Shown here: in pieces, positions 8,532 to 31,456 of the stretch
How positions within the stretch are numbered: the stretch's first letter is position 1
Layout of the letters: each line of letters opens with the position of its first letter
NCBI RefSeq assembly: GCF_000015585.1
Contig: NC_008789.1
Coordinates: 1,380,001-1,412,000 of the forward strand
Direction: 5' to 3'
DNA from: Halorhodospira halophila SL1
Lineage (GTDB): Bacteria > Pseudomonadota > Gammaproteobacteria > Nitrococcales > Halorhodospiraceae
DNA: 32,000 nucleotides
Program-made: the position numbers and the translations under genes
The notes under the pieces: generated by a model
Databases searched by the model: none
Seen by the model: the letters and a program-made list of their open reading frames with translations, nothing else
Told to the model about the DNA's origin: nothing

Positions 8532-8606
8532 GGGCGGCTAGCTCAGCGGGAGAGCACTGCCTTCACACGGCAGGGGTCGCTGGTTCGATCCCAGCGCCGC
8601 CCACCA
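8532..8606 (+). tRNA. tRNA-Val (anticodon CAC)
   Basis: Hand-folded cloverleaf: GGGCGGC/TA/GCTC-AGCGGGA-GAGC/A/CTGCC-TTCACAC-GGCAG/GGGTC/GCTGG-TTCGATC-CCAGC/GCCGCCC-ACCA. 75 nt, CCA encoded. Confidence 0.9.
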
Positions 8607-8607
8607 A
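8562..8607 (+). repeat. attL: 46-bp direct repeat (3' part of tRNA-Val)
   Basis: TTCACACGGCAGGGGTCGCTGGTTCGATCCCAGCGCCGCCCACCAA is identical, checked base by base, to 27849-27894. Confidence 0.88.
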
Positions 8608-8920
8608 ATTTACGTTTCGCAACATCTAACAAAGCCTACCCTCCGCTCCCAAGGGCCTGATCCTACAAAGATTTAGGTCTCATCCTATTCACTACCGTCT
8701 ACGGCGGGCGACCCTCTTGTGTGGGTACTGGTGTGGGTGTAAGCGGCGGCACGACGCTTACTACCCACAGCGCGGGCAAGAACACCGCGAGCGCGCATGC
8801 TTCGGAGCCCGCGCTAGCGACCCGGTGTCAAACGTATTGCTGCTGACAACCCCTTAACTCTACGCGGGATCACGTCGAGCGATCGTGTCACCGAGCAGTA
8901 CGGGTATCACGGGAGGGGGC

Positions 8921-9265
8921 ATGACCCGGGGTATCAACAGACTGACCGACCGCCAGTGCCGGACGGCAAAGACGCCTGAAGGCAAAGAGCAGATCAAGCT
9001 CGCTGATGGCGGCGGACTCGTGTTGCTGGTCAAGCGCAACGGCGCCAAGCAATGGCAACTCCGCTACCGGCGACCTTCCGGACGCGAGGCAACGATGGGC
9101 CTCGGCGTCTACCCCGAGGTACCACTATCGAAAGCCAGGGAGCAGCGAGACGAGGCACGCTCCCTGCTCGCGGATGGCGTCGACCCCATTCAGCACCGCA
9201 GGACCCAAAGACACGCGGCCGCGTCAGCCGATGCGCACACGTTCGAGGCCGTCGCGCGTGAATGG
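8921..9265 (+). pseudogene. P4-type tyrosine integrase, N-terminal arm-binding (DUF4102-like) fragment only
   Basis: MTRGINRLTDRQCRTAKTPEGKEQIKLADGGGLVLLVKRNGAKQWQLRYRRPSGREATMGLGVYPEVPLSKAREQRDEARSLLADGVDPI is the typical N-terminus of tRNA-associated P4-like integrases. The reading frame is broken at 9266 by the IS30-family end. No catalytic domain follows. Confidence 0.8.
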
Positions 9266-10360
9266 GCTGATCTCAAGAATCAAGCGCAACAGTCTTCGAA
9301 AAGGCCTGAAGCTCTTCAGTCATGGCCTCCTCGGGCGTTCTGAAGTCCAGTGCCTTGCGTGGCCGCTGGTTGAGAAGCCGCGCAATATCATTGAGTTGGG
9401 TCTGGCTCGGCTCGCTGAGATCGGCGCCCTTGGGCAGGTACTGGCGCAGCAGGCCGTTGGTGTTCTCGTTGCTGCCACGCTGCCAGGGCGCGTGCGGATC
9501 GGCGAACCAGATCGACAGATTCAACCGCCGGGCAAGCCGCTCATGGCAGGCCATCTCGCTGCCCCGGTCGTAGGTCAGACTCTGACGCAGGATTGCCGGC
9601 AGGCGCCTCATCTGCCGATGGAAGCCCTCCAGGGCGGCCTCGGCGGTACCGTCGTGCATCTTGCTCAGTACGACGTAGCGGGTCTTGCGCTCAACCAGCG
9701 TGCCGACCGAGGAGCGGTTGTAGGCGCCCTTGATCAGGTCGCCCTCCCAGTGGCCGGGCATCAGCCGCTGCTCGATCTCTTCAGGCCGATAGGCGATGGG
9801 CAGGTGCTCCGGGGCGATCGAGCCGCCTCGCGCGGCCGTGCGCCGCCGTTGCCCGCGCTGCGGTTTCTGGCGGCGAAGCGCCCGGATCAGCTCCTGCTTG
9901 AGCGAGCCCTTGGGATGGGCATAGATCGCCGCGTAGATGGTCTCGTGGCTGACGCGAGCCTCAGGATCCTCGGGGTTCATACGCGCCAGTCTGCCGGCGA
10001 TCTGCTCGGGAGACCACTGCCAGTAGCACAGCCGGTCCAGGACATAGCGATACAGCCATCCGCCCTCAACCAGCTTGGCGGGGCGACCGCAGCGGCGCCG
10101 TCGGGCGCGGTACTCCTGCGCGCCCTGCGTCGGGCAGTACGCCGTCTCTGCCGCGGGGTCGCTGCCGCGGGCCAACTCCCGGGTCACCGTCGACGGACTG
10201 CGCCCGAGAAGGTGGCTGATCGCCCGCGCACTGCTGCCACGGCTGCGCTCACTCAAGATGACGGCGCGCTCCTGATCACTGAGATGCTGGTATCCGTTCG
10301 CCATCGCAACATCCTACCCCGCTCTGGGCATGGGTGTTGCGCTTGAAAGTTGAGCCTACG
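9266..10360 (-). mobile_element. IS30-family insertion sequence (apparently intact copy)
   Basis: The left end is defined by the start of identity with the second copy at 18521. The imperfect terminal inverted repeats share CTCAAnnnTCAAGCGCAACA (9272-9291) and its complement (about 10336-10355). The right end is approximate. Confidence 0.75.
9273..10304 (-). CDS. IS30-family transposase
   Basis: 343-aa ORF with an N-terminal HTH (LSDQERAVILSERSRGSSARAISHLLGRSPSTVTREL). The DDE region (HWEGDLI...TYDRGSEMA...PWQRGSNENTNGLLRQYLPKG) is typical of IS30 transposases. Confidence 0.9.
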   Translation of the reverse strand: MANGYQHLSDQERAVILSERSRGSSARAISHLLGRSPSTVTRELARGSDPAAETAYCPTQGAQEYRARRRRCGRPAKLVEGGWLYRYVLDRLCYWQWSPEQIAGRLARMNPEDPEARVSHETIYAAIYAHPKGSLKQELIRALRRQKPQRGQRRRTAARGGSIAPEHLPIAYRPEEIEQRLMPGHWEGDLIKGAYNRSSVGTLVERKTRYVVLSKMHDGTAEAALEGFHRQMRRLPAILRQSLTYDRGSEMACHERLARRLNLSIWFADPHAPWQRGSNENTNGLLRQYLPKGADLSEPSQTQLNDIARLLNQRPRKALDFRTPEEAMTEELQAFSKTVALDS

Positions 10361-10847
10361 CCCTCTTGAGTACCGAGACAGCCTCGGAATTGCAGCATGA
10401 ACCAGTCCAAGAAAATAGCCGCATACCCTAAGCGGACAATAGCGGGCGGGCGTGACAGGCGGGGGCACCAAGCCAGGGCCGGGGTGGGCGGAGACGCGGT
10501 GCTCGGCATGGCGCCGGGCGGTTCCGGAGTCGAGGCGCTGGGTGGCCAAGGAGGCGCTGGCGGGCTTCGGTCGCCGACCAGGCGAGCCGGCGTGCGTCAG
10601 CACGCGGGCGGGAGCGGAGCCGTCGGGCACGGACGCTGGATACCGCCACCGAGCCGGGGCCGAAGGCGGTTCGGTTGCCGTGGTGGTATCCAGCGGGCAC
10701 TCCCCTAGCCGACGACGCCCCCACCCGAAAAGGACCGCCGAGGCTCCGGCGGCCCCGCGGCGCCGTGGGGCGGGTGGGGGTTCACGGCCACCGGACTATA
10801 CGCACTGGACGGGCAGTTCCATCCGGTGGGCTGTTGCACACTACCAG

Positions 10848-11432
10848 TCAGAAACGTCCAACCAGACCAGCACTTAGCGCATCAATCTCGTAACCTGCCT
10901 CATCGAGGTACTGCATGTACTCGAAGTTCGCGCTAGCGGCATCACCAACATGAATATCTACACCGGCTCCGAATGAAGCTCCGGTATCAGATTGGCTGTA
11001 GCTGAATCCGTTTGCCTCCGCAGTCATCTGCCCGCCCGTTAAGCCCACGATCCCATACAGTGCTAGGGCGTCCCCAACAGGGAGGTGACCACGGACATAA
11101 CCACCGAAGAGGTAATCAAGCTCAACGTCCACATCTACAGAGGTAGCACCTTCCGACACCGTTACCGAATCATCGCCAATGCCAAATCCGGCGCGGCCCT
11201 CTACCGATACGTATTCACTCACATACGTTCCGACACGCCCTACTAACCCTGTAAGGTCGGCATCACCATCAACAGTGATGCCAAGTTGCGGGACGTCATC
11301 CTCGCCATAAGTGGCAGATGCTATTTGGCCCCCCGCATAACTATCCCCCGCAGTTGGCGCTTGTGCCATCACAGCCCCGGAGAGACACAGCGCAGAGATG
11401 CCTACGAGCGTCACAGTCCTTGTTCGATCCAT
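10848..11432 (-). CDS. Outer-membrane beta-barrel (OmpA-TM/OmpW-like porin family) protein
   Basis: Signal peptide ...LSGAVMA/QAP. The body has alternating Gly/aromatic beta-strand-like segments. The C-terminal Phe (LVGRF) is typical of the OMP beta-signal. Visibly lower GC than the flanks. Confidence 0.72.
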   Translation of the reverse strand: MDRTRTVTLVGISALCLSGAVMAQAPTAGDSYAGGQIASATYGEDDVPQLGITVDGDADLTGLVGRVGTYVSEYVSVEGRAGFGIGDDSVTVSEGATSVDVDVELDYLFGGYVRGHLPVGDALALYGIVGLTGGQMTAEANGFSYSQSDTGASFGAGVDIHVGDAASANFEYMQYLDEAGYEIDALSAGLVGRF

Positions 11433-11688
11433 GCTCTCTCACTCCCCTCGATAGCGGCAATGTCAGCCCGGTTAGCATTGAACCCGAAAGATGATGTGAA
11501 TTCAAAAGGGATGTGCCTGTCCCGTCTGGCTCCGGCCACGGTGTGGCCCCGTAGTGACCCAGTCTTTCTACAGAGCACGCGCTCCGTCCAGTCACTCGTA
11601 GACTTCCGGCCTTGGGAACAAGCGTCCACCCCAGGCGCGTAGCCTCGCAACAACTTGGTCGTCCTAGGTTTGACGACACCGCATAAAG

Positions 11689-11704
11689 CTGAATAAAGTT
11701 ACAG
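11689..11704 (+). promoter_or_regulatory. Candidate LexA (SOS) box overlapping the umuDC promoter
   Basis: CTGAATAAAGTTACAG fits CTG-N10-CAG with an AT-rich spacer. It lies 28 bp upstream of the umuD ATG. A TTGACG -35-like hexamer is at 11670-11675, and TAAAGT (-10-like) lies inside the box. Confidence 0.6.
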
Positions 11705-11731
11705 CCCTGTGTCCGTGGAACCGCACCCGTC

Positions 11732-12160
11732 ATGACCGTGACCCACCTGCAGACCTGCGCCAGGGAGCCTGCCGCGCTGCGCCGCCCGCTCTTTCTGGAG
11801 CGCGTTGCCGCCGGCTTCCCCTCCCCGGCTCAGGACTACGTCGACCGGGCCCTCGATCTCAACGAGCTCTGCATCGAGCACCCGGCCGCGACCTACTTCG
11901 TCCGCGCCGCCGGCGAGTCGATGCTTGGCGTCGGCATCCACCCCGGCGACGTCCTGGTGGTGGATCGCGCCCTCGAGGCTCGGCACCGGGACATCGTCAT
12001 CGCCGCCTGGCAGGGCGAGCTTACGGTCAAACGGCTGGAGCTCCGGCCGACGCTGCGCCTGGTCGCCGAGAACGACGCCTTCCCGCCGATCGATATTGCC
12101 GAGCCGGAGATGCTTGAGATCTTCGGGGTGGTTACGTTCGTCATCCACGCCCTGCGCTGA
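11732..12160 (+). CDS. umuD: UmuD, S24 peptidase subunit of translesion DNA polymerase V
   Basis: [13 protein letters not shown] (Ala-Gly cleavage region), AGESM (Ser nucleophile) and LTVKRLE (Lys). The stop overlaps the umuC start (TGATG). Confidence 0.88.
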
Positions 12161-13431
12161 TGCCGGTCTACGCGCTGGTCGACGTGAACAGCTTCTATGC
12201 GAGCGCCGAGCGGCTCTTTCGGCCGGATCTCGTGGGGCGACCGGTGGTGGTGCTGTCCAATAATGACGGCTGCATCGTCGCCCGCTCCGCGGAGGCCAAA
12301 GCGCTGGGCGTGCCCATGGGTGAGCCGTACTTCCGTGTCCGCGACTGCCTGCGGGCCGCGGGCGCGGCGGTGTTCTCGTCGAACTACGCCCTGTACGCGG
12401 ATCTGTCATCGCGGGTCATGCGCACCCTCGAGGCACTCGCCCCCGCGGTGGAGATCTACTCGATCGATGAGGCGTTCCTGGATCTCACCGGGCTCGACAC
12501 ACTGACCGACACCGAACGCTTCGGCCAGGAGGTCCGCGCCCGCATCCGGGGCGATGTCGGGTTGCCGGTATGCGTCGGCATCGGCCCGACCAAGACGTTG
12601 GCCAAGCTCGCCAACCATGCCGCGAAGCAGGATCCCGAACGCCACGGCGTCGCCTGCCTGCGCGATCCGGCAGCGCGGGCCCGGGCGCTGCGGGCCACCC
12701 CGGTGAACGCGGTCTGGGGTGTCGGCCAACGGCTCGCCGATCGCCTGGCTGAGCTCGGCGTTCACACCGCCGAGGATCTCGCCAACTTATCGCCGAGGCG
12801 GATCCGTCAGCACTTCCCCGTGACCCTCGCACGGACGGCGGAGGAGCTGCGGGGCTGCGCCTGCCACGATCTTGAAAGCGAACCGGCACCCCGGCAGCAG
12901 ATCGTCTGCTCGCGTACTTTCGGCACGCCGGTTCGTGACGAGCCGGCGCTTCGCGAGGCCGTCGCGGATTACGCGGTGCGCGCCGCGGAGCGCCTGCGCG
13001 AGACCGGACAGCACGCCGCCGCCCTCTCCGTCTTTCTTCGCACCGACCCGCACCGGACCGCGGAGCCGCAGCACATGCCCACGGCGACGCGGCGGCTGAC
13101 GATTGCAACGGACGACACTCGCGACCTGTTGGCCGTTGCCCTTCGGATCGCCGAGGAGCTCTGGCGCCCCGGCCACGCCTACATCAAGGCCGGCGTGATG
13201 CTCGGGGAACTCCAGGCTCCCGGGATCTCCGGTGATCTCTTCGCCGACGACGCGGCGCGGGCTCGATCGGCGGACCTGATGCAAGCGGTCGATGCCATCA
13301 ACCGTCGCCACGGCCGCGCTGCCGTGACCTACGGCGTCCAACGCCGGGGGCGTGCCGAATGGCGAATGCGCCGCGACTACCTCTCCCCGGCCTACACGAC
13401 GCGGTGGACGGATCTGCCGGTGGTGGGGTGA
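12160..13431 (+). CDS. umuC: UmuC, Y-family translesion DNA polymerase V catalytic subunit
   Basis: [48 protein letters not shown] and SIDEAFLDL are canonical UmuC/Y-family motifs. Translationally coupled to umuD. Confidence 0.9.
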
Positions 13432-13525
13432 GTCGCGATGTGCCCAGTGGAGTGCCGCCCCACTACCCCTGCGAGCGTTTGCCGTGGTACGTGTCCCCTT
13501 ACGGGTTACTGCCAAGGAGGCGCTC

Positions 13526-14254
13526 ATGCTTGTCTACCCGCCGAATGCAGAAACGGGGGTTTATCTGCTGCTCGGGCAGTTACGCCCCTACCTGCCCTTC
13601 GAACTCGCGATCGACTCCTTTGAGATCTGCCCGCATTCAATGGGGTATGCCCATTCCAAGCATCTGGACGCGCTCGGCTATTGGCTCCGTGACGACGAAT
13701 GGGAGCGCATCAGTATCGAATTCAAGCTTCACAGCAGCGGGATGCTCCGGGACCTAACCGCACATCCAGATCTGACCGTCGATCTCCTGGTGTGCTGGCA
13801 GGATGACGTCCCGGGGGAACTGACTCAGAGCGTCGCCTACGTCCTAGCGCTCGATGAGGTTCTGGCAAATGCACCGGAGGAGGAGCGGACCGGCGTTATC
13901 CGGAATCCGAAGGCGAGCGCCCCAAGGGAGCACGCCGCAGCCACTACCGAGGCGATCATTGCCCGCTTTGCGGAGCACAACCGACCGAAGGTCGAACGGC
14001 TGTGCCAAGGCTGGCCACAGTACCGCCCGGGCGCCAGTGAGCTGATCTTTACCCGCGGAACAAGGACGCTGTTTCGGGCCGTATGCTATTCAACGGAGCA
14101 TCTGTACGTGACGGAGTACGTCGCTCGCGAACAGCGCAAGCATCTGGTGGATCGCTTCGGGGGAGACTGGTACCAGGGCGGCGCGATAAAGGTTCCCTTT
14201 GACCGACTGGACGCGCCAGGCGTCGATCACCTATTGAGTGTTCTGGGTCCGTGA
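13526..14254 (+). CDS. Hypothetical protein; N-terminal PD-(D/E)xK-like motif, function unknown
   Basis: ATG at 13526 is preceded by AAGGAGG. The N-terminal half has DALGYW...ERISIEFKL...VDLLVCWQDD, which resembles a restriction-endonuclease-fold D...ExK core. I do not recognise the C-terminal half. The track ORF start at 13352 would overlap umuC. Confidence 0.55.
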   Translation: MLVYPPNAETGVYLLLGQLRPYLPFELAIDSFEICPHSMGYAHSKHLDALGYWLRDDEWERISIEFKLHSSGMLRDLTAHPDLTVDLLVCWQDDVPGELTQSVAYVLALDEVLANAPEEERTGVIRNPKASAPREHAAATTEAIIARFAEHNRPKVERLCQGWPQYRPGASELIFTRGTRTLFRAVCYSTEHLYVTEYVAREQRKHLVDRFGGDWYQGGAIKVPFDRLDAPGVDHLLSVLGP

Positions 14255-14719
14255 GGCGGGGGTGAGCGTTAGTGCCCACGGATGGCGTTATGCACAGCAG
14301 CCCGCTAGGCACACGCCCAAAGGTGGGTGCCCTGGCTGGGCTCCTCCTGGTGCGCGAGAACGCATCCATCGCCCCGCTCCACCTATGGCGAACGGTGATG
14401 GCATGCTCAGCCGACACCCTCGGGTCGTTCTCGGCGAAAACAGCAGGGCCGCCCGGGGTTGACATTGCCGGTCGCGGTAGTCATTGACCGCTCGTTTCTG
14501 CACAAGCTCCCAGCAAACGCCTCGTAACCCACTGACGGATGGAAGGGTAACGATAGGTTGCTGATTTGCCGTTGCTTTAGCACTGGCTACTGGTTATCCA
14601 GTCGACCTCGAATGCCCTCATGGCAAGGCTTCGGTCGACGTTCTCCACACGGTTTTCCACAGGTTTTGTGGAAAGGGGATCTCAGTTCTACCGCCGCGGC
14701 ACGCTCCTCCCGCGCCCAC

Positions 14720-15961
14720 TCACACCTTCACCTGATCGACGATCTCCGCCAGGCGGCTCGTGCCGATCCCGTCGACTTCCTCAAGCTGCTCGATCCGCCG
14801 GATCGGTCTCAGGGCGACGATCGCCTCGGCGCGCTCCGGGCCGATGTGGGGGATCGCCTGGAGTTCTTCGATGGAGGCCGTGTTGAGGTCGATGCGCCCC
14901 GTCGGCTCGTCGCCCTGCCCCGCCCCCGGTGCACCACGAGCCGACCGCGCTGAGGATGGCTTCGAGGCCTCATCCACCGGCCGGGCCGGCTCGATCTGTA
15001 GCTGGGCGTGATCAGCGAAGATCTCCAGCATCTGCTCCTGGAGCACCGTCCGTGGGCCCTGGATCAGGGCCAGGTCATCGGCCTCAAAGAGCAGTGCCGC
15101 CCGCCGGGACCCCTCCAGTTTCTCGGCCGCCACTTCGGCGAGCAGCGCGATCAGGATCCGGTGCGCATCCTCCCTCGGCTGAACGGCGGCGCGGCAATGT
15201 TCAAGTCCCTGGGCCGCCTCGGCGAAGACCTCCGGGGAGCGCGGGAGCGCGACCCATCCCGTCTTCTCGGTGACCCGTCGGTACGTCCGCTGGCCGTCCT
15301 GCAGCGCCTCACCCCGCCCCCAGACGGCCACCGCCAGGGCGAAGGAGGCGCTGAGCCGGTCCGCGTCCCAGCGGTTGATCGCCTGCTCGACAGCCTCGTC
15401 GATCCGCCGGCGCTGTCGGCGCAGCCAGGCATTGCGCCACCACCGCGGCAGGGCGTGCACGTTGTCACCGACCCACTGGCCGAGGGCGATGGCGCCGCGC
15501 AGCAGCCCGCCAATGAGCATCAAGAGCAGCTGCACCGCCCCGACGATGGCAGCGACGACCATGTAGATCAGCTGCAGCTGCGCCGCCTTCTGCCCCCGGA
15601 CCTGGACGCCGAAGGGCTTCGCCGAGGAGCGGTTGGGCTTGAGCCAGTTGAACGAGCCGAGCCGATTGCGCGTGGAGACCGTCGCGCCGCTCTTGGAGAG
15701 GTTCAGCTTGGTTGGCCCCTTCCCGTAGCGACCGCGCAGGATGAACCGTCCGTTCTGCAGGGCCACCTGGGTGTTCTTCGCCGGCGTTACCGAAGCCCGG
15801 ACGCCGCGCCGGGTGTTGGCGGTAAGATCCACGCCCGCCGCCCGGGCCTGGGCGCGCAGCGCCACGCCGCCGGTGCGACTGGCCCGCAGGTACTTGCCGC
15901 GGTGCTCGACGCGCCGCTGCTTGCCGTAAGCGTCCTTCGTGCCGAGATTAAACAGGGCCAT
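14720..15961 (-). CDS. Membrane protein with DUF4236-like basic N-terminus, one TM helix and C-terminal tandem helix-hairpin-helix (ComEA-like) DNA-binding domain
   Basis: GPTKLNLSKSGATVSTRN resembles the DUF4236 signature. The TM segment is LIYMVVAAIVGAVQLLLMLIGGLL. The C-terminus reads IDLNTASIEELQAIPHIGPERAEAIV...LEEVDGIGTSRLAEIV (two HhH). I chose start MALFNLG (15961), which is preceded by GAGGAG. Confidence 0.68.
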   Translation of the reverse strand: MALFNLGTKDAYGKQRRVEHRGKYLRASRTGGVALRAQARAAGVDLTANTRRGVRASVTPAKNTQVALQNGRFILRGRYGKGPTKLNLSKSGATVSTRNRLGSFNWLKPNRSSAKPFGVQVRGQKAAQLQLIYMVVAAIVGAVQLLLMLIGGLLRGAIALGQWVGDNVHALPRWWRNAWLRRQRRRIDEAVEQAINRWDADRLSASFALAVAVWGRGEALQDGQRTYRRVTEKTGWVALPRSPEVFAEAAQGLEHCRAAVQPREDAHRILIALLAEVAAEKLEGSRRAALLFEADDLALIQGPRTVLQEQMLEIFADHAQLQIEPARPVDEASKPSSARSARGAPGAGQGDEPTGRIDLNTASIEELQAIPHIGPERAEAIVALRPIRRIEQLEEVDGIGTSRLAEIVDQVKV

Positions 15962-16144
15962 CACGCTCCTCACCGGTGTGCCGTCATCCGCTATAGCGGC
16001 GGGCATGCCCTTCTACACCACCCCCGCGACACCATCTGTCGTCGCATTCGGAGACCATCCTTCCCGAACTGCGGGCTTCCCCGGACCTCTTTCAATCCCG
16101 CATGATGTGCCGTAGAAATACCTCGATCGCACACGGACCGAGCG

Positions 16145-17146: not shown

Positions 17147-17293
17147 AGAACCATAACCGGCCGCCAACCGCGACATGAGATGTCGCAGCCGTTTGTTGTC
17201 ATTACATCATCCCGGGCAGGATCCGATCGCGGATCCGGGCATGGAAGCCACCCGGGGCCCTTTCCAAAGAAACCGGGGGAGCGCTCTGCGATC

Positions 17294-19314: not shown

Positions 19315-19370
19315 TGGTCTTGCCCACCAACCGTGGACACCTCAATAGCTACCATTCGACGAGGTGATCC

Positions 19371-19685
19371 ATGACGAGGCAAGCTACTCAGATGAGCAAG
19401 ACCAAGGCGAAGTCCAAGCGCACACGCTACACCCAGGCCTATCGAGACGAGGCGCTGGCGTTGGCCGAGCGCGTCGGCGTCAGCGAGGCGGCCCAGCAAC
19501 TCGGGATCCAGCCGGCGCAGATCTACCAGTGGCGCACCAAGGCCCGGACCGAAGCGGACCGCTCGCAGCGAGAGCGGGAGTTGGCCGAGGAGAATGCCCG
19601 GCTCAAGCGTCAGCTCTCGGAAGCGAATGAGGAGCTGTCGATCACAAAAAAGGCCGCGGCGTACTTCGCGAAAAACCAGAAGTGA
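19371..19685 (+). CDS. IS3-family transposase OrfA (HTH)
   Basis: 104 aa with an HTH (VSEAAQQLGIQPAQIYQWR) and a leucine-zipper-like tail. Contains the A6G frameshift site. Confidence 0.88.
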   Translation: MTRQATQMSKTKAKSKRTRYTQAYRDEALALAERVGVSEAAQQLGIQPAQIYQWRTKARTEADRSQRERELAEENARLKRQLSEANEELSITKKAAAYFAKNQK

Positions 19686-20548
19686 AGTACGCGTTCATCG
19701 ATCAGCAGCGTCACGAGCACCGGGTCCAGGCGATGTGCCGCGTCCTTGGCGTTGCTCGCAGCGGCTTCTACGCATGGTGTCGGAACAAAGCTGTCCGCGC
19801 CGCACGGGAAGAGCGCCAGCAGGCCTTTGATGGGCAGGTGCAAGAGGCCTTCGAAGACTCCAGGCAACGCTCTGGAGCGCCTCGACTGACGCGAGAGCTG
19901 GACGGGCAAGGCGTGTCGGCCAATCGCAAGACCGTGGCCCGGAGCATGCGCCGTCAGGGCCTCCGGGCACGCACGTCACGCCGGTTTAAGGTGACGACGA
20001 ACTCGGCTCACAGCCTGCCGGTCGCGCCAAACCACTTGGCCCAGCACTTTGAAGCGGAGCAGCGGAACCAGAAATGGACTGGCGACATCACGTATTTGGC
20101 GACCGGCGAAAGATGGCTCTATCTCGCGGTCGTCCTGGATCTTTGTGGCCGCAAAGTGATCGGTTGGGCCATGCGCGAGCAGATGAGCGCTGAACTGGCC
20201 TGTGAGGCGCTTCAGATGGCCCTGGAACGGCGAGGCTACCCCACGGGGGTCATCGTCCATACGGATCGAGGCAGCCAGTACTGCTCCCGTGCGTACCGCA
20301 GGCTCATCAGCGACTACGGGCTGATCAGCAGCATGAGCGCGAAGGGCAGCTGCTACGACAATGCCTGCAACGAGAGCTTTTTCCGTTCCCTGAAGGTCGA
20401 GGCCCTGCATGGCGAGAAATTCCCCACGCGGGCCTCGATGCGTGAGGCCGTCTTCGAATACATTGAGGGCTACTACAATCGCCGGCGTCTTCATAGCACG
20501 CTCGGGTACCTATCCCCGGACGACTACGAGGCCCGGCTTAATAGCTAA
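19682..20548 (+). CDS. IS3-family transposase OrfB (DDE/rve integrase core); normally expressed as an OrfAB fusion by -1 frameshifting
   Basis: WTGDITYL...HTDRGSQYCS...CYDNACNESFF...YYNRRRLHSTLGYLSP are the canonical IS3 DDE motifs. Confidence 0.9.
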   Translation: MKYAFIDQQRHEHRVQAMCRVLGVARSGFYAWCRNKAVRAAREERQQAFDGQVQEAFEDSRQRSGAPRLTRELDGQGVSANRKTVARSMRRQGLRARTSRRFKVTTNSAHSLPVAPNHLAQHFEAEQRNQKWTGDITYLATGERWLYLAVVLDLCGRKVIGWAMREQMSAELACEALQMALERRGYPTGVIVHTDRGSQYCSRAYRRLISDYGLISSMSAKGSCYDNACNESFFRSLKVEALHGEKFPTRASMREAVFEYIEGYYNRRRLHSTLGYLSPDDYEARLNS

Positions 20549-20578
20549 CACCGTGTCCACGTTCGCTGGGTAAGACCA

Positions 20579-21316
20579 CCCGGCAGAGCGCTGCCAGCTC
20601 GCCGAAAGCACCTGCTCAACGGCGGGTTTGAGCCCCGGTGAGCGTCACAGATGACCAGCTCGACCCCGCACCCGTCAAACCCCGACCGATGACCTCGCGG
20701 AGGAACTGCTTCGAGAACCCCTCCGTCTCGTTCGACCCCAACGACAGGCCCAGTGCCTCCCAGCGCCCTACGGTGTTGACGCCGACCGCGATCAGGCAGG
20801 CCTTAGAGATCACCCGGCCGTGCTCGCGGACCTTGATGTAGGTGGCATCGAGCAAAAGAAATGGCCAGCGCCCCTCGCTCGGTCGGCTCAGGAACGCCCC
20901 CACCCCCTCGTCGATGAACTGGCACAGCCGCGAGACCTGCGAATTTGAGATCCCCTCCATGCAGACGGCCTTGACGAGCTCGTCGACGGAGCGGGTCGAC
21001 ACCCCCTGGATATAGGCCTCCTGAACAACCCCGACGAGCGCCTGCTACATTGCCGCCGCGGCTCCAGGAACGAGCGCAGATAGTTGGCGTGGCGCAGACG
21101 CGGCACCTTTAGCTCCATGGAGCCGACCCGTCTGTCTTAGCGCCGGCTACGGTAGCCGTTGCGATAGTCCGTGCGCTAATGGCGCTGATCCCCCCACATC
21201 GAGTCCGCCTTGGCCTCCATGAGCTGCTGGACGATTTCATGGACCAGCATGCGCAGAAAGTCGACGTCGCCACCCTTCTCAGCCATCTCCAGCAGTGCGA
21301 ACCTGTTATCAGCCAT
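20579..21316 (-). pseudogene. IS256-family transposase, degraded and 3'-truncated by IS3 copy 1
   Basis: My minus-strand translation gives MADNRFALLEMAEKGGDVDFLRMLVHEIVQQLMEAKADSMWGDQRH*, then YRNGYRSRR*DRRVGSMELKVPRLRHANYLRSFLEPRR. After a frameshift it reads STRSVDELVKAVCMEGISNSQVSRLCQFIDE...LLLDATYIKVREHGRVIS. These are typical IS256 motifs interrupted by stops and frameshifts. Confidence 0.8.
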
Positions 21317-21709
21317 CGCGGACCTCCATTCGATTGGGTTTCTTCGTTTACTGGCCCGAATCCTAACGGGGTCGGCGGTGGCCCTTCACCTCCCTGAAGC
21401 CCACCCCACTACAGCTGCCCTGCTGTAGCTTTTACGCATTCCTGGGGACTCTACTGCAAGACCAGATTTCCGTCGCTAACTAATCGCCGAAGTGTCTACC
21501 TTCGAGTTATCTTCGTGACTAGGGAGTTCCGCGTATACTGCGCCCATTCTGCGACAACGTGCCCGACTAGCAGAATATGCCTCCCCTTCACGCACGACCT
21601 ATACTTGCCATCGATAGTCTGCGCTAAGGTGCCGGCAGGATAGGCTCGGATAACTTTTCACACCCGTAGACCTCCCAAATAACCATCAGCCCTCTAGCTG
21701 GGTGATCGC

Positions 21710-23038
21710 ATGAGGTTCACTATGGTTGATAACAAAACCCCTCAGATTAGTGTACAGAAAATCACGCTAAGGATCTTTATGGGGGCGTGCTTTATCCTGA
21801 TGTGTATAGCCTGTAACTCATCGAGCGACAACGATGAAACGGAGCACGAGAGTGATACGCCGGAGGTAACACATGAATTAACTCTCGAACCCAGTGAATC
21901 CAGCCTTAAAGCTGAGTGGCTTGACTCTGAGGATGTGACCTACAATCTGATTTACGGCCAGGACGAGGACATTTTAACCGATCCAGCTAACTACGCCACC
22001 TACGATGGGAGCATGGATCAAGACGTCAGCTCTCCACATGAAATCAAGGGACTGGAAAAGGAATCGACTTACCATGTTGTTCTTGAAGTTGACGACGAGC
22101 GTGGCACCCGTTATCCAGCGAAAGAATCAACTACGCTGAATTCGGAAAAAATTTTAAGCTCGAGCGATGTGTTATGGATATTTGAAAAGCATGATGGAGT
22201 CGTACGTAGCCTCGCAGCGTATGATAGCACCGTTTACAGCAGCGGCAACGATGAGACGGTCCGCGCCATAGACGCAAAAAGTGGGGACGAGATATGGGTT
22301 TTTGAGGAGCATTTTGACTTTATCTACAGCGTTGAAAACTATGAGGGCACAGTCTACAGCGCTGCCCGAGGCGGTGCATCAAGCATAAAAGATGGTTATG
22401 ATAGCACCGTCCGCGCAATTGATTCTGGAACAGGTGAAGAGAAATGGGTGTTTGACGGTAACAGATCTTTTTATGACGTTGCCGCAGCCGACAACTCCGT
22501 ATATGCTGCAAAATCAAGCGGGAGCGTCCTTCAGATAGACGCTGAAAAAGGATCAAGGAAACAGGTTATCGGACAACATGATCGTCAAGCCAGAGGCGTT
22601 GCGGTAGCGGGCGGGACTGTATTTAGCGCCGGTCATGATACAACTATACGCGCTTTCGACGTAGAACAAGAAGAAGAGAAATGGGTCTACGAGGGGCCAG
22701 AAAGCCCCCACAAAAACTTCTTGAGTGTTGCAGCAACCAAGGAAGCAGTTTACGCGGGCAGCGACACCTCTATAAGGGCGCTTGACGCTGATACAGGCGA
22801 GAAGCAGTGGGCTTATGAGGACATACAGTCCGGTGGGTTTTACACCGTTAAAGAACTTGGCGACGTGGTATACGGCGGAAGCCTTGACGGAAAAGTTCGG
22901 GCAATCGATTCGAAAACGGGTGAAAAGAAGTGGGTCTTTGCAGAACATGAAGACCACGTGCGGGCTGTCGTGCCAACCGAACATGCTATATATAGTGGCG
23001 ATAGCGGCGGGACAATCTTAGCTATTGATCCCCCTTGA
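21710..23038 (+). CDS. Lipoprotein with FN3-like segment and PQQ-like/BamB-like beta-propeller repeats
   Basis: Lipobox-like FILMCIAC followed by an acidic linker. The motif (D/G)xT(V/I)RA(I/L)Dxx(T/S)GE(E/K)KWV(F/Y) recurs six to seven times about 40 aa apart. AT-richer than the surroundings. Exact start uncertain. Confidence 0.78.
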   Translation: MRFTMVDNKTPQISVQKITLRIFMGACFILMCIACNSSSDNDETEHESDTPEVTHELTLEPSESSLKAEWLDSEDVTYNLIYGQDEDILTDPANYATYDGSMDQDVSSPHEIKGLEKESTYHVVLEVDDERGTRYPAKESTTLNSEKILSSSDVLWIFEKHDGVVRSLAAYDSTVYSSGNDETVRAIDAKSGDEIWVFEEHFDFIYSVENYEGTVYSAARGGASSIKDGYDSTVRAIDSGTGEEKWVFDGNRSFYDVAAADNSVYAAKSSGSVLQIDAEKGSRKQVIGQHDRQARGVAVAGGTVFSAGHDTTIRAFDVEQEEEKWVYEGPESPHKNFLSVAATKEAVYAGSDTSIRALDADTGEKQWAYEDIQSGGFYTVKELGDVVYGGSLDGKVRAIDSKTGEKKWVFAEHEDHVRAVVPTEHAIYSGDSGGTILAIDPP

Positions 23039-23189
23039 AAAACTACTAGGCTGCTGGAAAAGTCGGTTTTGTCATGTCATAAAGGTTGTCGTTGATCGCG
23101 TAATGGTCCAGCGCACCGGTTTGGCCTGGAAACTGGTCTTGCCCACCAACCGTGGACACCTCAATAGCTACCATTCGACGAGGTGATCC

Positions 23190-23504
23190 ATGACGAGGCA
23201 AGCTATTCAGATGAGCAAGACCAAGACGAAATCCAAGCGCACACGCTACAGCCCGGCCTATCGAGACGAGGCGCTGGCGTTGGCCGAGCGCGTCGGCGTC
23301 AGCGAGGCGGCCCAGCAGCTGGGGCTCCAACCGCCGCAGATCTACCAGTGGCGCACCAAGGCCCGGAACGAAGCGGACCGCTCGCAGCGAGAGCGGGAGT
23401 TGGCCGAGGAGAATGCCCGGCTCAAGCGTCAGCTCTCGGAAGCGAATGAGGAGCTGTCGATCACAAAAAAGGCCGCGGCGTACTTCGCGAAAAACCAGAA
23501 GTGA
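23190..23504 (+). CDS. IS3-family transposase OrfA (copy 2)
   Basis: 104 aa, differing in a few residues from copy 1. The A6G slippery site is at 23465-23471. Confidence 0.85.
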   Translation: MTRQAIQMSKTKTKSKRTRYSPAYRDEALALAERVGVSEAAQQLGLQPPQIYQWRTKARNEADRSQRERELAEENARLKRQLSEANEELSITKKAAAYFAKNQK

Positions 23505-24369
23505 AGTACGCGTTCATCGATCAGCAGCGTCACGAGCACCGGATCCAGGCGATGTGCCGCGTCCTTGGCGTCGCTCGCAGCGGCTTCTACGCATGGTGCC
23601 GGAACAAGGCGGCCCGCGCCGCACGGGAAGAACGCCAGCAGGCCTTTGATGGGCAGGTGCAAGAGGCCTTCGAAGACTCCAGGCAACGCTCTGGAGCGCC
23701 TCGACTGACGCGAGAGCTGGACGGGCAAGGCGTGTCGGCCAATCGCAAAACCGTGGCCCGGAGCATGCGCCGTCAGGGCCTCCGGGCACGCACGTCACGC
23801 CGGTTTAAGGTGACGACGAACTCGGCTCACAGCCTGCCGGTCGCGCCAAACCACTTGGCCCAGCACTTTGAAGCCGAGCAGCGGAACCAGAAATGGACTG
23901 GCGACATCACGTATTTGGCGACCGGCGAAGGATGGCTCTATCTCGCGGTCGTCCTGGATCTTTGTGGCCGCAAAGTGATCGGTTGGGCCATATGCGCGAG
24001 CAGATGAGCGCTGAACTGGCCTGTGAGGCGCTTCAGATGGCCCTGGAACGGCGAGGCTACCCTACGGGTGTCATCGTCCATACGGATCGTGGCAGCCAGT
24101 ACTGCTCCCGTGCGTACCGCAGGCTCATCAGCGACTACGGGCTGATCAGCAGCATGAGCGCGAAGGGCAGCTGCTACGACAATGCCTGCAACGAGAGCTT
24201 TTTCCGTTCCCTGAAGGTCGAGGCCCTGCATGGCGAGAAATTCCCCACGCGGGCCTCGATGCGTGAGGCCGTCTTCGAATACATTGAGGGCTACTACAAT
24301 CGCCGGCGTCTTCATAGCACGCTCGGGTACCTATCCCCGGACGACTACGAGGCCCGGCTTAATAGCTAA
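23501..24369 (+). pseudogene. IS3-family transposase OrfB (copy 2), frameshifted
   Basis: Split into track ORFs 23501-24007 and 23893-24369 by the 2-bp insertion near 23990. Confidence 0.85.
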
Positions 24370-24399
24370 CACCGTGTCCACGTTCGCTGGGTAAGACCA

Positions 24400-24553
24400 T
24401 CTTGGCTTACTTCGAACACCCGATCACCAGCGGGACAATCGAGGGGCTCAACAACCGGATCAAGACGGTCAAGCGCCAGGCCTACGGCTTCCGGGACATG
24501 GAGTATTTCAAGCTTCTGGTCCGTCACCTGAACGACCCGATCGTGCAGGCATG
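24400..24553 (+). pseudogene. ISL3-family transposase, C-terminal fragment
   Basis: My translation LAYFEHPITSGTIEGLNNRIKTVKRQAYGFRDMEYFKLLVRHLNDPIVQA* matches the conserved ISL3 C-terminus (ITNGxxEGxNNKIKxxKRxAYGFR). It starts directly at the IS3 copy 2 right end. Confidence 0.75.
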
Positions 24554-24713
24554 AACGGGCGCTCAGAGAGCACTTTCGGCGGCGCCGCCGAGGGACACAT
24601 CACAATGATGGAATCCGTGAAGACCCGAGGTTGTCGGTACACAGGTTCATTTCATTGGATGCTGCCCCGCCGACGGCCAGGCAGCGTCCGGAGAACCTAT
24701 AAGATGAATTAGG

Positions 24714-25700
24714 CTATGAGCCCTCCCACCTCAACTCATCCCATTCCAGATGAATGCTTCCGCCACCCTCTATATCAGTAACGGTGGCTCCGTCGTTTCT
24801 GTACTTGATTCGTAAATCGTACCCGTCGGGGTGTTTTACGCGGATTTCCCCGTCACAAATCCATCCGTGCGCTTCATCCTCAAAGGCACTCCAGTTCCAT
24901 TGGTCAAACTTCAAGTCGACTTCAGTGGAGACCTCGGCGTATCCTTCGTCGTACCCGTAGACTTTCTCACCGTCATCTTCTAAATACCAGCCAAAGCCAC
25001 CCGATATACGCATCCGATAGGGATTAATTGTTTCCTGCTCCCAGGTGAAGTCGGAATCCCATCGGATTTCGAATAGCTCATCATCCTCGTGCCAGCGGCC
25101 GGTGAGTCCTGAATCAACCGTAATGACTCTGGGTACGCTAGTCGTGTCGCGGTACGATCTTGAGTAGTCACCTTCTACTTCGAGCTCTCCAGGGAGCTGG
25201 TTTCCGCCGCCATCAAAGAATCTATCCGTGTATTCGACTTCAAAATACCCCTCACTATCGCTCGGACCTTCGTCAACAGGACCTATGCTGGAAGCTCGAA
25301 TTGTGCCGTCCCGTTCGACATATTCATCACCAAGCTCAGATTGCCAGCTGTGGAACCGGGACTGCTCGTACGTCAGGGTTTGGTCCGCGAGCGTTAATGT
25401 CCCGTTCTCGGGGCAGTCGGGCGGCTCGTCTTCTTCTTCGCTAGCGCAACCGTAGTGCTCGAGGTATTCTCCAGTGCGCTTCCAGAGATCTAGAAGCACC
25501 AGGTCTTCGGTCACGAATTGAGCGACTTCTTTCATTGTCGCATCGGAAGCTGCCTGAGGCGGTGATTCGTCAGTTTCCCCATTCGAATCGTCATCATCGT
25601 CGTCGCTGCTGAGACAACCACCAAGCAACAGACTACTCAGGAGAATGGTTGAGCTGTAGATGGTCCAGCGAGAGATGGCTTTTTTATTGGTGTGGGGCAT
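24714..25700 (-). CDS. Lipoprotein of unknown function
   Basis: Signal peptide plus lipobox (LLSSLLLGGC) followed by a poly-Asp linker (SSDDDDDDSNGETDES). The body is acidic and Trp/Tyr-rich. AT-richer than the flanks. No family recognised. Confidence 0.72.
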   Translation of the reverse strand: MPHTNKKAISRWTIYSSTILLSSLLLGGCLSSDDDDDDSNGETDESPPQAASDATMKEVAQFVTEDLVLLDLWKRTGEYLEHYGCASEEEDEPPDCPENGTLTLADQTLTYEQSRFHSWQSELGDEYVERDGTIRASSIGPVDEGPSDSEGYFEVEYTDRFFDGGGNQLPGELEVEGDYSRSYRDTTSVPRVITVDSGLTGRWHEDDELFEIRWDSDFTWEQETINPYRMRISGGFGWYLEDDGEKVYGYDEGYAEVSTEVDLKFDQWNWSAFEDEAHGWICDGEIRVKHPDGYDLRIKYRNDGATVTDIEGGGSIHLEWDELRWEGS

Positions 25701-25789
25701 CCGTATCGTCCTTTTTCTTTTTTTTGGTCGACGTTACACGCAAAGGGCTCTAAGATCATAAGGGATTGCATCATGACGTACAACACGGA

Positions 25790-26130
25790 AGGTTAGCTGT
25801 TGCGATCTGGCGGATCCTCAACCACTACCTACGTGGAAGCGGCTCGCCATTGCTCAGCAGGACCTCAGCAGCGTCCGTGCTGTCGGCATCGCCGAGACGG
25901 CCTGGCGGCGCGGGCAGAACTACATCACGGTCTTGTAAAATCTCGATGCCCGCAGCCTGCTCTTCGCCTTTCAGGGGCGGAACCAGTCGATTATCGCGGA
26001 TTTTGGGTCCCTTCGCGGATCGTGTGGCTGTCAGGAGGTTGCCGCGGGGTAGTCGGTTAAGCATCTGTGCCTATATGTTGTGCCTCGCCGTCCCCGCCCA
26101 AGCGAGGAGCTGTCATGGCCACCGAGCATG
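25790..26130 (+). pseudogene. ISL3-family transposase, internal fragment with frameshifts (boundaries approximate)
   Basis: One frame reads DLSSVRAVGIAETAWRRGQNYITVL* (compare ISL3 GIDExxxRKGHxYxTVxxD). Neighbouring frames carry WRILNHY and LDARSLLFAFQGRNQS-like pieces. Confidence 0.5.
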
Positions 26131-26232
26131 CCCTGTTCACCGGCGCGCTGGTATGCGTCCGGTGAACCCCGTGTATCCACCGTAACGTCCACCGGTTAGC
26201 TTGGCCCCGTGTTTTGATCCGCGACCACGGAG

Positions 26233-26841
26233 GTGGCGATGGCCGGCGGGACTCAAGAGCGCAAGCGCGCCTTCTGCGCGCAAGAGGGCGTGGCCGAGAG
26301 CACCTTCACCGCCTGGCGCCGACACCTGCAGGCCGCTGCGGTGGCACCGAGCGCGGCACCGAAACCGGCCGAGGCGACGGAGCCGACGCCTTCGGCGCCA
26401 GAGCCCGCTGGTGGCCTGTTCGCTGAGCTTTCGTTACCGGGCGCCTCGCCATCGGACGACCCCCTCCGGGGTAAGCAGGACGCTGCGCCCTGGGGGTCGA
26501 GTTGGACCTCGGCGCCGGGGTCTTCTGCGGATCCGGCGGGCCCCGGGGTGCTGACGCCGCCGCGGCGCCTGTGGCTGTGTACCCGGGCGACGGACATGCG
26601 GTGCTCGTTCGATGGTCTTGCCGCGCTGGTGCGTCGCCACCTCGGGCGGGATCCGCTCAGTGGGCAGGGCTTCATCTTCGTCAATCGCCGGCGCACCCTG
26701 ATGAAGCTGCTCTACTTCGACGGCGACGGCTACTGCGTGTGGAGCAAACGCCTCGAGCAGGGTCAGTTCGGCGTGGGGGGCGCTCAGGTACAGACCGTGG
26801 AGGCGCTGACCTGGACGCAGTTCGCCGCATTGCTTGAGTAG
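26233..26841 (+). CDS. IS66-family accessory proteins TnpA-TnpB (fused in one frame); orphan, no TnpC present
   Basis: The N-terminus (RKRAFCAQEGVAESTFTAWRRHL) is HTH-like, as in IS66 Orf1. The C-terminal half LWLCTRATDMRCSFDGLAALVRRHLGRDPLSGQGFIFVNRRRTLMKLLYFDGDGYCVWSKRLEQGQF is the IS66 Orf2/TnpB signature. Confidence 0.75.
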   Translation: MAMAGGTQERKRAFCAQEGVAESTFTAWRRHLQAAAVAPSAAPKPAEATEPTPSAPEPAGGLFAELSLPGASPSDDPLRGKQDAAPWGSSWTSAPGSSADPAGPGVLTPPRRLWLCTRATDMRCSFDGLAALVRRHLGRDPLSGQGFIFVNRRRTLMKLLYFDGDGYCVWSKRLEQGQFGVGGAQVQTVEALTWTQFAALLE

Positions 26842-26952
26842 GACTGAATCTGACTATACCTTGAGTCTCGCCCAGCGCCGCGCCGGTTATGAGGCTGGGC
26901 GCAAGGGTTTGGAAGGATGCAGCAGGCCTTAAGCGGATAATAACCGTCGGGC

Positions 26953-27315
26953 GTGACAGCGCTCGGTTTACCGGGCATGAAGGTCTTTCACTCAGCACAT
27001 AAACGGGGCGTCGATACCCGCCGCCTGCGACGAGAGATGCGGCGGCGTTCGGCGGTGGAGGCGGTGATCGGCCACATGAAGATCGACGGGCGCATGGACC
27101 GGTGCCGGCTCAAGGGCCGCCTCGGCGATGCCATGAACGCGGTGCTCGCCGCGGCCGGGCACAACATCCGACTGCTACTCCGGGCGATGGCCGCCTTTTT
27201 GCGGCTTGCTCTGCGGGCGCTCCTGCAGCGGATGTCCATGGAGGGTCACCCCGATGTCCACTCCGCGCCGACGATGTCGGCCGCATGCCCGAAACGGAAC
27301 AAGAAACACGAGTAA
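26953..27315 (+). pseudogene. IS5-family (DDE_Tnp_1) transposase, C-terminal fragment
   Basis: RRRSAVEAVIGHMKIDGRMDRCRLKGRLGDAMNAVLAAAGHNIRLLLR matches the conserved IS5-group C-terminus. The N-terminal two thirds are absent. Confidence 0.72.
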
Positions 27316-27333
27316 CCCGTTATTCAGAACCGA

Positions 27334-27615
27334 CTATCCAGACCTCCCTTGCATCGAGTCGGTGAACGAGGAATTCCGAGGACGCCCTTTGCGCGGCGCG
27401 CCCTTCTTCAATAACTTGGCCGGCTCAGCCCCTGGGTACTCCACCCTACTCTCAAGCCAGGCGTCCACGTCGTCCAGGCGCCAGCGGTAATGGCGGCCTA
27501 GCTTGATGTAGGGAGGCAAATCCTGACCTCGACAGAGCCTGGCACGAATCGCACCAGGCGCTAATCCGAGGTACTGTGCAAGATCGTTGGTGGTGAGAAG
27601 CGGTGGTCGGTGCAT
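27334..27615 (-). CDS. AlpA/excisionase-family (HTH_17) DNA-binding protein
   Basis: LLTTNDLAQYLGLAPGAIRARLCRGQDLPPYIKLGRHYRWRLDDVDAWLE is a typical MerR-like excisionase/AlpA fold. The gene sits next to attR, at the opposite end of the island from the integrase. Confidence 0.8.
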   Translation of the reverse strand: MHRPPLLTTNDLAQYLGLAPGAIRARLCRGQDLPPYIKLGRHYRWRLDDVDAWLESRVEYPGAEPAKLLKKGAPRKGRPRNSSFTDSMQGRSG

Positions 27616-27710
27616 GCGCCTTGTCCTGTTTGGGGTTCACTACCCTGTAAGGGATCAGCGACCACACCGACCGGCTTGGGACCCAGACCGCTCCCCAGAA
27701 GCCCAGATCT

Positions 27711-27735
27711 ATGCAGTACTCATGCAGTACTGCAT
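27711..27735. promoter_or_regulatory. Candidate operator: tandem ATGCAGTACT repeat forming a perfect 14-bp palindrome
   Basis: ATGCAGTACTCATGCAGTACTGCAT. The last 14 nt (ATGCAGTACTGCAT) are self-complementary. It lies about 100 bp upstream of the alpA-like start in an AT-rich spacer. Confidence 0.4.
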
Positions 27736-27848
27736 AGGCAAAAACTTGTCATTCGCCGTAACGTGGAGTAATCTCCAGTAACTGTAAACGACTGATTGGT
27801 CGCGCCTTTATAGCGTAAGCGCTTGTTCCTCGGGACAGTCTGATGGCT

Positions 27849-27894
27849 TTCACACGGCAGGGGTCGCTGGTTCGATCCCAGCGCCGCCCACCAA
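27849..27894 (+). repeat. attR: 46-bp direct repeat copy of the tRNA-Val 3' end
   Basis: Identical to 8562-8607. The upstream tRNA half is absent, so this is not a second tRNA gene. Confidence 0.88.
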
Positions 27895-28084
27895 CTTCCC
27901 TGCGGCTTAAGCCTCTTCCACCAGGCTCTGGGTCGCTTAAGTCTCACAGCGCCCCCCTCCCCCGCCGTGACGCTCCCAAGTGCGTCATTGGATGATACCC
28001 TCGGAGTCTTGCAAACACGTCATCCTGGCGACAGGTGTCGCGTTGCTGGGACGCTTCTTCGCCTGACGACGAACGACCAGGATC

Positions 28085-28447: not shown

Positions 28448-28455
28448 AGACCCTG

Positions 28456-30906: not shown

Positions 30907-31056
30907 CTCTAGGGGTATCGACACGGCCGTCGAAATCGGCGTGGTTCACCACCAAGAGCGCGCCCGGCCCCAAATCGCGGGCCAGCAGGGCGCACTAGTC
31001 GACCCCGGTTGACAGGCGCAAATCGGAGCGCCGAGCCAGTGGCTTTGCCCCCTCAC

Positions 31057-31428: not shown

Positions 31429-31456
31429 TGCGATCTCCAACTCCGAAGATGGGGGA

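Follow-up and report, generated by a model that had tools for sequence, protein, structure and literature searches.

The island CP4-57 of E. coli has a P4-type integrase: it carries an Arm-DNA-bind_3 (DUF4102) integrase together with a regulator of the AlpA family, and is inserted in a small-RNA gene. In P4-like phage satellites, the recombination module is also composed of a P4-type integrase and an AlpA/excisionase-like helix-turn-helix (HTH) gene. As for the attachment sites inside tRNA genes, Williams in 2002 reportedly treated a block of identity running from the anticodon loop to the 3′ end as one sublocation class. In the outline given for Islander, the ends of islands in tRNA genes (tDNA islands) are marked by a regenerated tRNA gene and a displaced fragment, that is, the tyrosine integrase splits the gene and sequence of the island restores the tRNA (Hudson, Lau and Williams 2015, PMC4383910). 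An element of this kind is described here in Halorhodospira halophila SL1. Within the stretch of 32,000 nucleotides that was analysed (the window), positions 8608-27894 are read, with a probability of about 0.85, as a 19.3-kb genomic island of the integrase type in the 3′ part of a tRNA-Val gene, that is to say, as one integrating element that was later disabled by insertion sequences (IS). A literature search turned up no account of an island in H. halophila.

Attachment site and recombination module

First of all, the gene for tRNA-Val(CAC), the target of the integration (8532-8606, forward strand), is intact (ARAGORN; Rfam tRNA model, 64 bits), and its 3′ part occurs a second time at the far end of the island. 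Direct string comparison showed that 8562-8607 and 27849-27894, both read on the forward strand, are identical at 46 of 46 positions and that the exact match extends no further on either side; when one mismatch is allowed, the similarity gains 3 nt at the 5′ side (8559 / 27846). The first copy, the left attachment site (attL), consists of tRNA positions 31-75 plus 1 nt and thus spans the tRNA from 2 bases 5′ of the anticodon to 1 base beyond the encoded CCA. The second copy (attR) is the displaced 3′ fragment of tRNA-Val, which lacks the 5′ 30 nt of the tRNA and is called as a tRNA by neither ARAGORN nor Rfam. A scripted search of both strands found no other occurrence of the 12-, 16- and 20-mers of the repeat in the window, where the next-best 46-mer match lies in tRNA-Ala and has 17 mismatches. 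An exact match of 46 nt within 32 kb cannot be due to chance.

Beside attL, a gene for a P4-type tyrosine integrase begins (8921-9265, forward strand), of which a stub of 115 codons remains that holds the arm-type DNA-binding domain only. The stub matches Pfam PF13356 (Arm-DNA-bind_3) over the full profile (1-83; E-value, E, 7e-28) and covers positions 1-120 of the 413 of NCBIfam PRK09692, and its homologues are numerous at 45-56% identity, the closest being at most 56% identical. In tblastn, P4-type integrases are homologous to the stub from their codon 3 to about their codon 107-109, and the homology ends at 9265-9271, which is the junction with an IS30-family element; the open reading frame (ORF) runs on into this element up to a stop at 9343 and makes a stub-IS30 fusion of 140 amino acids. 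The missing body of the integrase was searched for by tblastn with four P4-type relatives and two integrases of sister strains. The best matches outside the stub had E of at least 0.007 and lay in IS3 sequence or in random places, and the three frames to the right of IS30 contain no integrase motifs. As far as its sequence tells, the integrase is dead, having been cut at codon 115 by the IS30-family element.

At the opposite end, a gene for an excisionase/AlpA-like HTH_17 protein of 93 amino acids (27334-27615, reverse strand) reads inward from attR. It matches Pfam HTH_17 with E 5e-14 and PHROG 66, "excisionase and transcriptional regulator", and it scores 27.7 bits with TIGR01764, for which the cut-off is 28.8. 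In the preliminary description of this DNA, it had been claimed that the two copies of the 46-bp repeat are perfect, with the 5′ half of the tRNA missing from the distal one, that a P4-type integrase N-terminus adjoins attL, and that an AlpA/excisionase-type gene adjoins attR. The first claim is exact to the base, and the other two are confirmed by the domain matches given above, the TIGR01764 score for the HTH gene being just under the cut-off.

Two short sequence features were also noticed near the two genes. A pair of tandem 11-mers (CTTGTGTGGGT / CTGGTGTGGGT) lies at 8716-8738, between attL and the start of the integrase gene. Upstream of the excisionase-type gene, at 27709-27737, there is a perfect 12-nt palindrome (CTATGCAGTACT / AGTACTGCATAG). 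Either feature may serve as a site of protein binding, the significance being established for neither.

The tRNA-Val site in sister strains and other relatives

The GltX, helicase and UmuC proteins encoded in the window recur, identical residue for residue, on contigs of the assembly GCA_016583685.1 (NRRO01), which belongs to H. halophila strain 9630 and has a guanine plus cytosine (GC) content of 67.9% (PMC8877833). The window is 100% identical to three draft contigs of this strain over 9427, 7728 and 4623 bp, and these contigs break exactly at the IS copies; the 140-amino-acid fusion ORF is also recorded on the SL1 chromosome. The island, including the IS30 insertion, is therefore common to SL1 and 9630.

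Sister loci were gathered through exact-protein look-ups of GltX and through the members of its 96%-identity cluster, which come from Halorhodospira strains and metagenomes. The homology of the left flank, at about 89-91% nucleotide identity, ends at 8607 in eight of the nine sister and metagenome loci and at 8609 in the remaining one. On the right-hand side, strain 9626 realigns with the window over 27957-31492 at 89% nucleotide identity, which is the level of the core flank; that is to say, compared with this strain, the conserved chromosome picks up 62 bp to the right of attR. A second copy of the 46-mer was not present within 10 kb in the nine sister loci. Since homology breaks at its ends and the content of the sister strains differs, 8608-27894 represents an insertion specific to this lineage, at a hotspot that has been used repeatedly. 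The view that this is an integrase-mediated island in the 3′ end of a tRNA gene, which was put forward in the preliminary description, is well supported in that the left end coincides to the base with a break in synteny with sister strains and the right end does so to within about 60 bp.

Between the break points, the content differs from strain to strain. Strain 9624 (locus L089, L089:1-9712; JAJNRC01) has a tyrosine recombinase of 384 amino acids followed by cas1, cas2-3 and csy1-3, a type I-F CRISPR-Cas system, and strain 9621 (L092, L092:1-9122; JAJNRD01) has the same type of integrase together with an MmeI-like methyltransferase/restriction gene; the 384-amino-acid integrases of both are devoid of an Arm-DNA-bind_3 domain. 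Locus L087 (L087:200-9600) holds an integrase fragment, a gene for an outer-membrane protein (OMP), DUF7946/7947 and DUF2806, and locus L094 has a further integrase downstream of tRNA-Val. In strain 9626 (L090/L091, L090:5232-9803; NHSN01), a 4.6-kb stretch that encodes a reverse transcriptase and a DUF2971 protein is followed by genes for a MazG-like protein, an SLFN-type helicase and DUF2237, which in the window form the right flank (the strain names for JAJNRC01, JAJNRD01 and NHSN01 are taken from a table in PMC8877833). No nucleotide similarity was found between these sister islands and the island of the window. In every Halorhodospira relative examined, the tRNA-Val site is occupied or the contig ends at the tRNA. 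In H. halochloris the synteny is lost, and at locus L102, from a metagenome-assembled genome (MAG), tRNA-Val is followed by housekeeping-type genes without an integrase, the right flank being different from that of the window.

A scan of genome contigs with GltX, in which the relatives are at most 68% identical among the matches listed, served for the study of synteny and for finding locus L005, but was of no use for finding an empty site. The order tRNA-Val(CAC)-gltX-tRNA-Ala is kept in Arhodomonas, Methylonatrum, Spiribacter and others, and in several of these synteny relatives an integrase lies beside tRNA-Val (L010, L018). Locus L005, from a Chromatiales MAG (L005:2627-9818), has a 7.1-kb segment with tRNA-Val(CAC) on one side and, on the other, 48 nt that repeat tRNA positions 28-75. 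Adjoining the end with the fragment lies the gene for an integrase of full P4 architecture, and the segment also encodes a Gp49/HTH_37 pair and a DUF3987 protein of 815 amino acids. In this integrase, Arm-DNA-bind_3 occupies residues 21-109, Int_N occupies residues 136-216 and the catalytic Phage_integrase domain starts at 275, a layout from which it follows that the stub of the window stops just after the first domain. L005 is an independent integration at the same sublocation. In summary, the tRNA-Val(CAC) gene beside gltX has served repeatedly, as a hotspot, for integration in Halorhodospira and related Chromatiales; its occupants in the sister strains include CRISPR-Cas, restriction-like and reverse-transcriptase genes.

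Insertion sequences, cargo and flanking genes

About 31% of the island is IS-derived, with eight IS-derived segments in the interior. Copy 1 of an IS30-family element (9266-10354, reverse strand; Pfam HTH_38 and rve, junction sequences) is complete, has terminal inverted repeats of 20 nt and interrupts the integrase gene. Copy 2 (18521-19313, reverse strand) is 99.4% identical to copy 1, has a 1-bp indel and is truncated by copy A of an IS3-family element (19314-20577, forward strand; Pfam HTH_Tnp_1 and rve, and its ends), in which orfA and orfB are intact. Copy B of the IS3-family element (23133-24398, forward strand) is 97.9% identical to copy A and has a frameshift in orfB. The remaining segments are fragments or remnants: an IS256-family (Mutator) transposase fragment (20616-21002, reverse strand; Pfam Transposase_mut, profile positions 115-225 of 379), an ISL3-family transposase fragment (24399-24554, forward strand; precomputed Pfam match to DDE_Tnp_ISL3 on the draft gene L082:115-282), a remnant of IS66-family orf2 (26239-26841, forward strand; Pfam TnpB_IS66, E 2e-29), and an IS5-like DDE transposase fragment (26953-27315, forward strand; Pfam DDE_Tnp_1_6, E 2e-7). 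The outer flanks of IS3 copies A and B (...CCATC / TCTTG...) are not matching target-site duplications, and from this it follows that rearrangements have taken place. A composite transposon made up of 20578-23132 between the two IS3 copies was also considered and is not supported, no shared target duplication being seen.

The GC content of the island is 0.627, compared with 0.686 for the left flank; the left 12 kb of the island stand at 0.65, and two blocks further to the right fall to 0.50-0.55. Both the mosaic of GC content and the abundance of IS elements in the interior, as pointed out earlier, are real.

The gene map of the island was drawn with Pfam, NCBIfam, PADLOC and PHROGs, the Pfam scan taking in 20 island ORFs. 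Behind IS30 copy 1 lies a gene for an outer-membrane beta-barrel protein (10848-11432, reverse strand; Pfam OMP_b-brl, E 1e-24), which by tblastn has a 40%-identical homologue at the same position in the sister island L087 (L087:8641-9201). In both islands, the OMP gene is convergent to the integrase gene, although the types of integrase differ. It is followed by a umuD-like gene for an S24 peptidase (11732-12160, forward strand; Pfam Peptidase_S24, E 7e-28) and by a full-length umuC-like gene for a Y-family DNA polymerase (12160-13431, forward strand; Pfam IMS, IMS_C and DUF4113). The next gene (13526-14254, forward strand), which is also called in the draft and has a GC content of 0.61, encodes a protein of 242 amino acids without a match in Pfam, NCBIfam, PADLOC, PHROG or the Protein Data Bank (PDB).

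The gene at 14720-16006 (reverse strand) encodes a protein of 428 amino acids with a C-terminal helix-hairpin-helix (HhH) of the ComEA type (Pfam HHH_3; ComEA matches in PDB) and, as read by eye, a putative central hydrophobic helix. It has more than 400 homologues of similar length (400-440 amino acids), which are annotated only as "ComEA family DNA-binding protein" and occur mostly in halophilic or alkaliphilic Gammaproteobacteria, with some in Desulfonatronospira; no described domain matched the N-terminal region of about 360 amino acids in this family, and SL1 has a paralogue with 79% identity. A gene for a WYL-WCX transcription regulator (16145-17146, forward strand; Pfam WYL and WCX, PADLOC WYL models) is divergent from the HhH gene. 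Next comes a DUF2779 pseudogene (17180-18520, forward strand), whose 3′ end is cut off by IS30 copy 2; it was spotted by eye in the six-frame translation of unassigned gaps and then confirmed by Pfam. Its reading frame is broken by a frameshift around 17560-17590 and by an in-frame stop around 18177. The conceptual translation matches PF11074 (E 8e-36, profile positions 1-112 of 126) and is weakly similar to nucleases of the Cas4/RecB type. Further to the right, there are a gene for a PQQ/BamB-like beta-propeller protein in a block of low GC, about 0.50 (21710-23038, forward strand; Pfam PQQ_2, E 1e-26), and a gene of low GC for an acidic putative lipoprotein (24714-25700, reverse strand), which has an N-terminal hydrophobic stretch ending in Cys, lipobox-like (LLGGC), and no family or PDB match.

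The cargo that looks intact comprises umuDC, the WYL regulator, the ComEA-like HhH membrane protein, the OMP barrel, the PQQ-type propeller and the lipoprotein. Defence systems were looked for with PADLOC, which gave only generic WYL matches within the island, and an interpretation of the cargo as a defence system was rejected on this ground. Relaxase, coupling-protein and type IV secretion domains are absent from the 20 island ORFs scanned by Pfam, small ORFs not having been scanned exhaustively, and the similarity of the island to plasmids is confined to IS30 and to short, weak nucleotide matches in umuC. An earlier suggestion that the cargo is mostly related to DNA damage and DNA processing holds for the block at 11.7-18.5 kb, with umuD, umuC, the WYL regulator, the HhH protein and the DUF2779 remnant, and does not hold for the remainder, which is made up of the OMP, the PQQ-type propeller, the lipoprotein, proteins without assigned family and IS debris.

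As for the flanks, the core on the left consists of recC, a DCC1-like gene, a CIA30-like gene, tRNA-Ala(GGC) and gltX, followed by tRNA-Val, and on the right there are MazG-like, helicase and DUF2237 genes. Just beyond attR, at 28085-30906, a gene for a MazG-like pyrophosphatase is followed by one for an SLFN-group-3/DUF2075 helicase of 816 amino acids, which carries a C-terminal S24 peptidase domain of the LexA/UmuD type. Both genes are conserved in strain 9626 at 91-93% identity of amino acids, the helicase gene being split into two calls in the Logan assembly of that strain, and the pair gives weak PADLOC matches to PDC-S41, Nhi and AbiO; it could be damage-activated or of a defence type.

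A umuC-like remnant also lies outside the island, at 31571-32000 (in L082 it goes on as far as about 32239). Its DNA sequence is 93% identical to 12695-12980 and 14238-14539, the DNA in between being deleted, and in strain 9626 Band_7 and other genes occupy its place. The draft contigs end at equivalent points, 14539 and 32239, which suggests that a second copy of the module of umuC, the 242-amino-acid protein gene and perhaps the HhH gene continues rightward of the remnant. It is conceivable, and in our estimate rather improbable, that the umuD-umuC-242-amino-acid-HhH-WYL-DUF2779 block is a coherent mobile cassette for sensing DNA damage, in which the WYL regulator would sense single-stranded DNA and would control error-prone synthesis together with a DNA-binding membrane protein; the genome would then hold two copies of it, one in the island and one, partly deleted, that starts 3.7 kb to the right of attR.

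Origin of the island and comparison with known systems

In the proposed course of events, a circular element would have entered the SL1/9630 lineage by site-specific recombination, in which a tyrosine integrase joins the attP of the element to an attB for which tRNA-Val(CAC) supplies its 3′ 45 nt, beginning in the anticodon loop and ending with CCA. After such an integration, attL would hold the intact tRNA and attR would hold a 3′ fragment of 46 nt. The original module would have had its P4-type integrase gene close to the tRNA and, at the far end, the gene for an HTH protein of the excisionase family. Insertion of an IS30-family element behind codon 115 would then have broken the integrase gene, the remainder of which would have been lost, and insertions of IS30, IS3, IS256, ISL3, IS66 and IS5-like elements as well as rearrangements would have come later. 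The island would now be fixed in place, and its excision is probably no longer possible, unless a compatible integrase acts in trans.

Several points weigh against this account. The core-binding (PF22022 / SAM-like) and catalytic (PF00589) integrase domains were not detectable by tblastn anywhere in the window, even at E = 10, so the tie between the integrase and the attachment site is circumstantial; moreover, since the closest relatives of the stub are at most 56% identical, there is no intact sister element for comparison. A search for arm-type sites found k-mers and short repeats common to both arms of the island at chance level only. On the right, strain 9626 has nothing that corresponds to the 62 bp at 27895-27956. 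The empty tRNA-Val site, joining 8607 to 27895 (...CCCACCAA directly to CTTCCCTGCGGCTTAAGCC...), which the preliminary description had named as a check, was looked for in sister strains and metagenomes and was not found; two metagenome pattern scans, one for the attR junction and one for the conserved region upstream of MazG, gave 0 matches each in limited collections. Finally, given the number of IS elements, it may be that the left and right ends stem from different elements.

The last point leads to the rival that survives best, which we nevertheless consider unlikely, namely that the region is a chimera or the remnant of a tandem array: two or more different elements would have integrated successively at tRNA-Val, and IS-mediated deletions would have brought together an integrase end and an excisionase/attR end of different origin, so that the region was never one mobile unit. 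The site is indeed a proven hotspot with at least three integrase types, the eight IS-derived segments and the IS3 copies without matching target duplications speak of rearrangement, the GC content falls toward the two right-hand blocks, and the OMP gene stands beside a different type of integrase in L087. However, no degenerate copy of the tRNA fragment is left in the interior, where the best match has 19/46 mismatches, and a single integrase stub at one end with a single excisionase gene at the other is the simplest layout for one element. That the region is what remains of a prophage or P4-like phage satellite, instead of a plain cargo island, is very improbable: the module (integrase N-terminus and HTH gene) is of the type that such satellites have and the L005 element at the same tRNA has a DUF3987 protein, but Pfam and PHROGs found no capsid, tail, terminase, portal, primase-helicase or lysis domain in the sizeable ORFs, and within the island PHROGs matched only the stub of the integrase, the HTH protein and the WYL regulator, the matches of the MazG-like protein and the helicase lying outside it.

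Taking the region as a single integrated island, the preliminary description had called it old and decayed. It is decayed, with the integrase cut at codon 115 without its catalytic domain, the DUF2779 pseudogene and 31% of IS-derived sequence. Its old age is not demonstrated: attL and attR agree at 46/46 positions, the IS30 copies are 99.4% identical, and the island is seen only in SL1/9630. A recent arrival with fast IS-driven decay fits at least as well, because the unconstrained attR is still identical to attL, the IS copies are nearly identical, and lineages diverged by about 10% carry other content at the site.

For H. halophila SL1/9630, this analysis yields a precisely bounded island, which island callers that depend on an integrase may miss. 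The island also illustrates clearly how an IS that lands in the integrase gene can disable such an element. The island belongs to a well-known kind, and the understanding of such elements is unchanged. With the tDNA islands outlined for Islander, it shares an intact tRNA at one end, a displaced 3′ fragment at the other and a strain-variable presence; it differs from them in that, of the tyrosine-integrase gene at an end, it has a 115-codon arm-binding stub without a catalytic domain, for which reason a pipeline needing a Phage_integrase match might skip it, and in that about one third of it is IS-derived. Like CP4-57, it combines an Arm-DNA-bind_3 integrase N-terminus and a small HTH excision regulator in one element with a small-RNA gene as the target, whereas its HTH protein matches HTH_17/TIGR01764 and not a dedicated AlpA model, prophage genes are absent and the integrase is dead.

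The overlapping pair of S24-peptidase and Y-family-polymerase genes resembles the rumAB/mucAB cargo of the SXT/R391 integrative and conjugative elements and of plasmids; unlike the SXT/R391 elements, the island shows no conjugation or relaxase genes in the scanned ORFs and would have been integrated into a tRNA gene by a P4-type integrase. A further comparison is that with the sister islands L087, L089, L090, L092 and L094 and with L005, which have the same attachment point, the variable DNA starting 1-3 nt past CCA. L089 and L092 differ in their 384-amino-acid type of integrase, and the cargo of the sister islands (CRISPR-Cas I-F, MmeI-like, reverse transcriptase-DUF2971) is unrelated, while L005 has a comparable repeat of 48 nt and, in full, an integrase of the P4 architecture of which the window retains the beginning.

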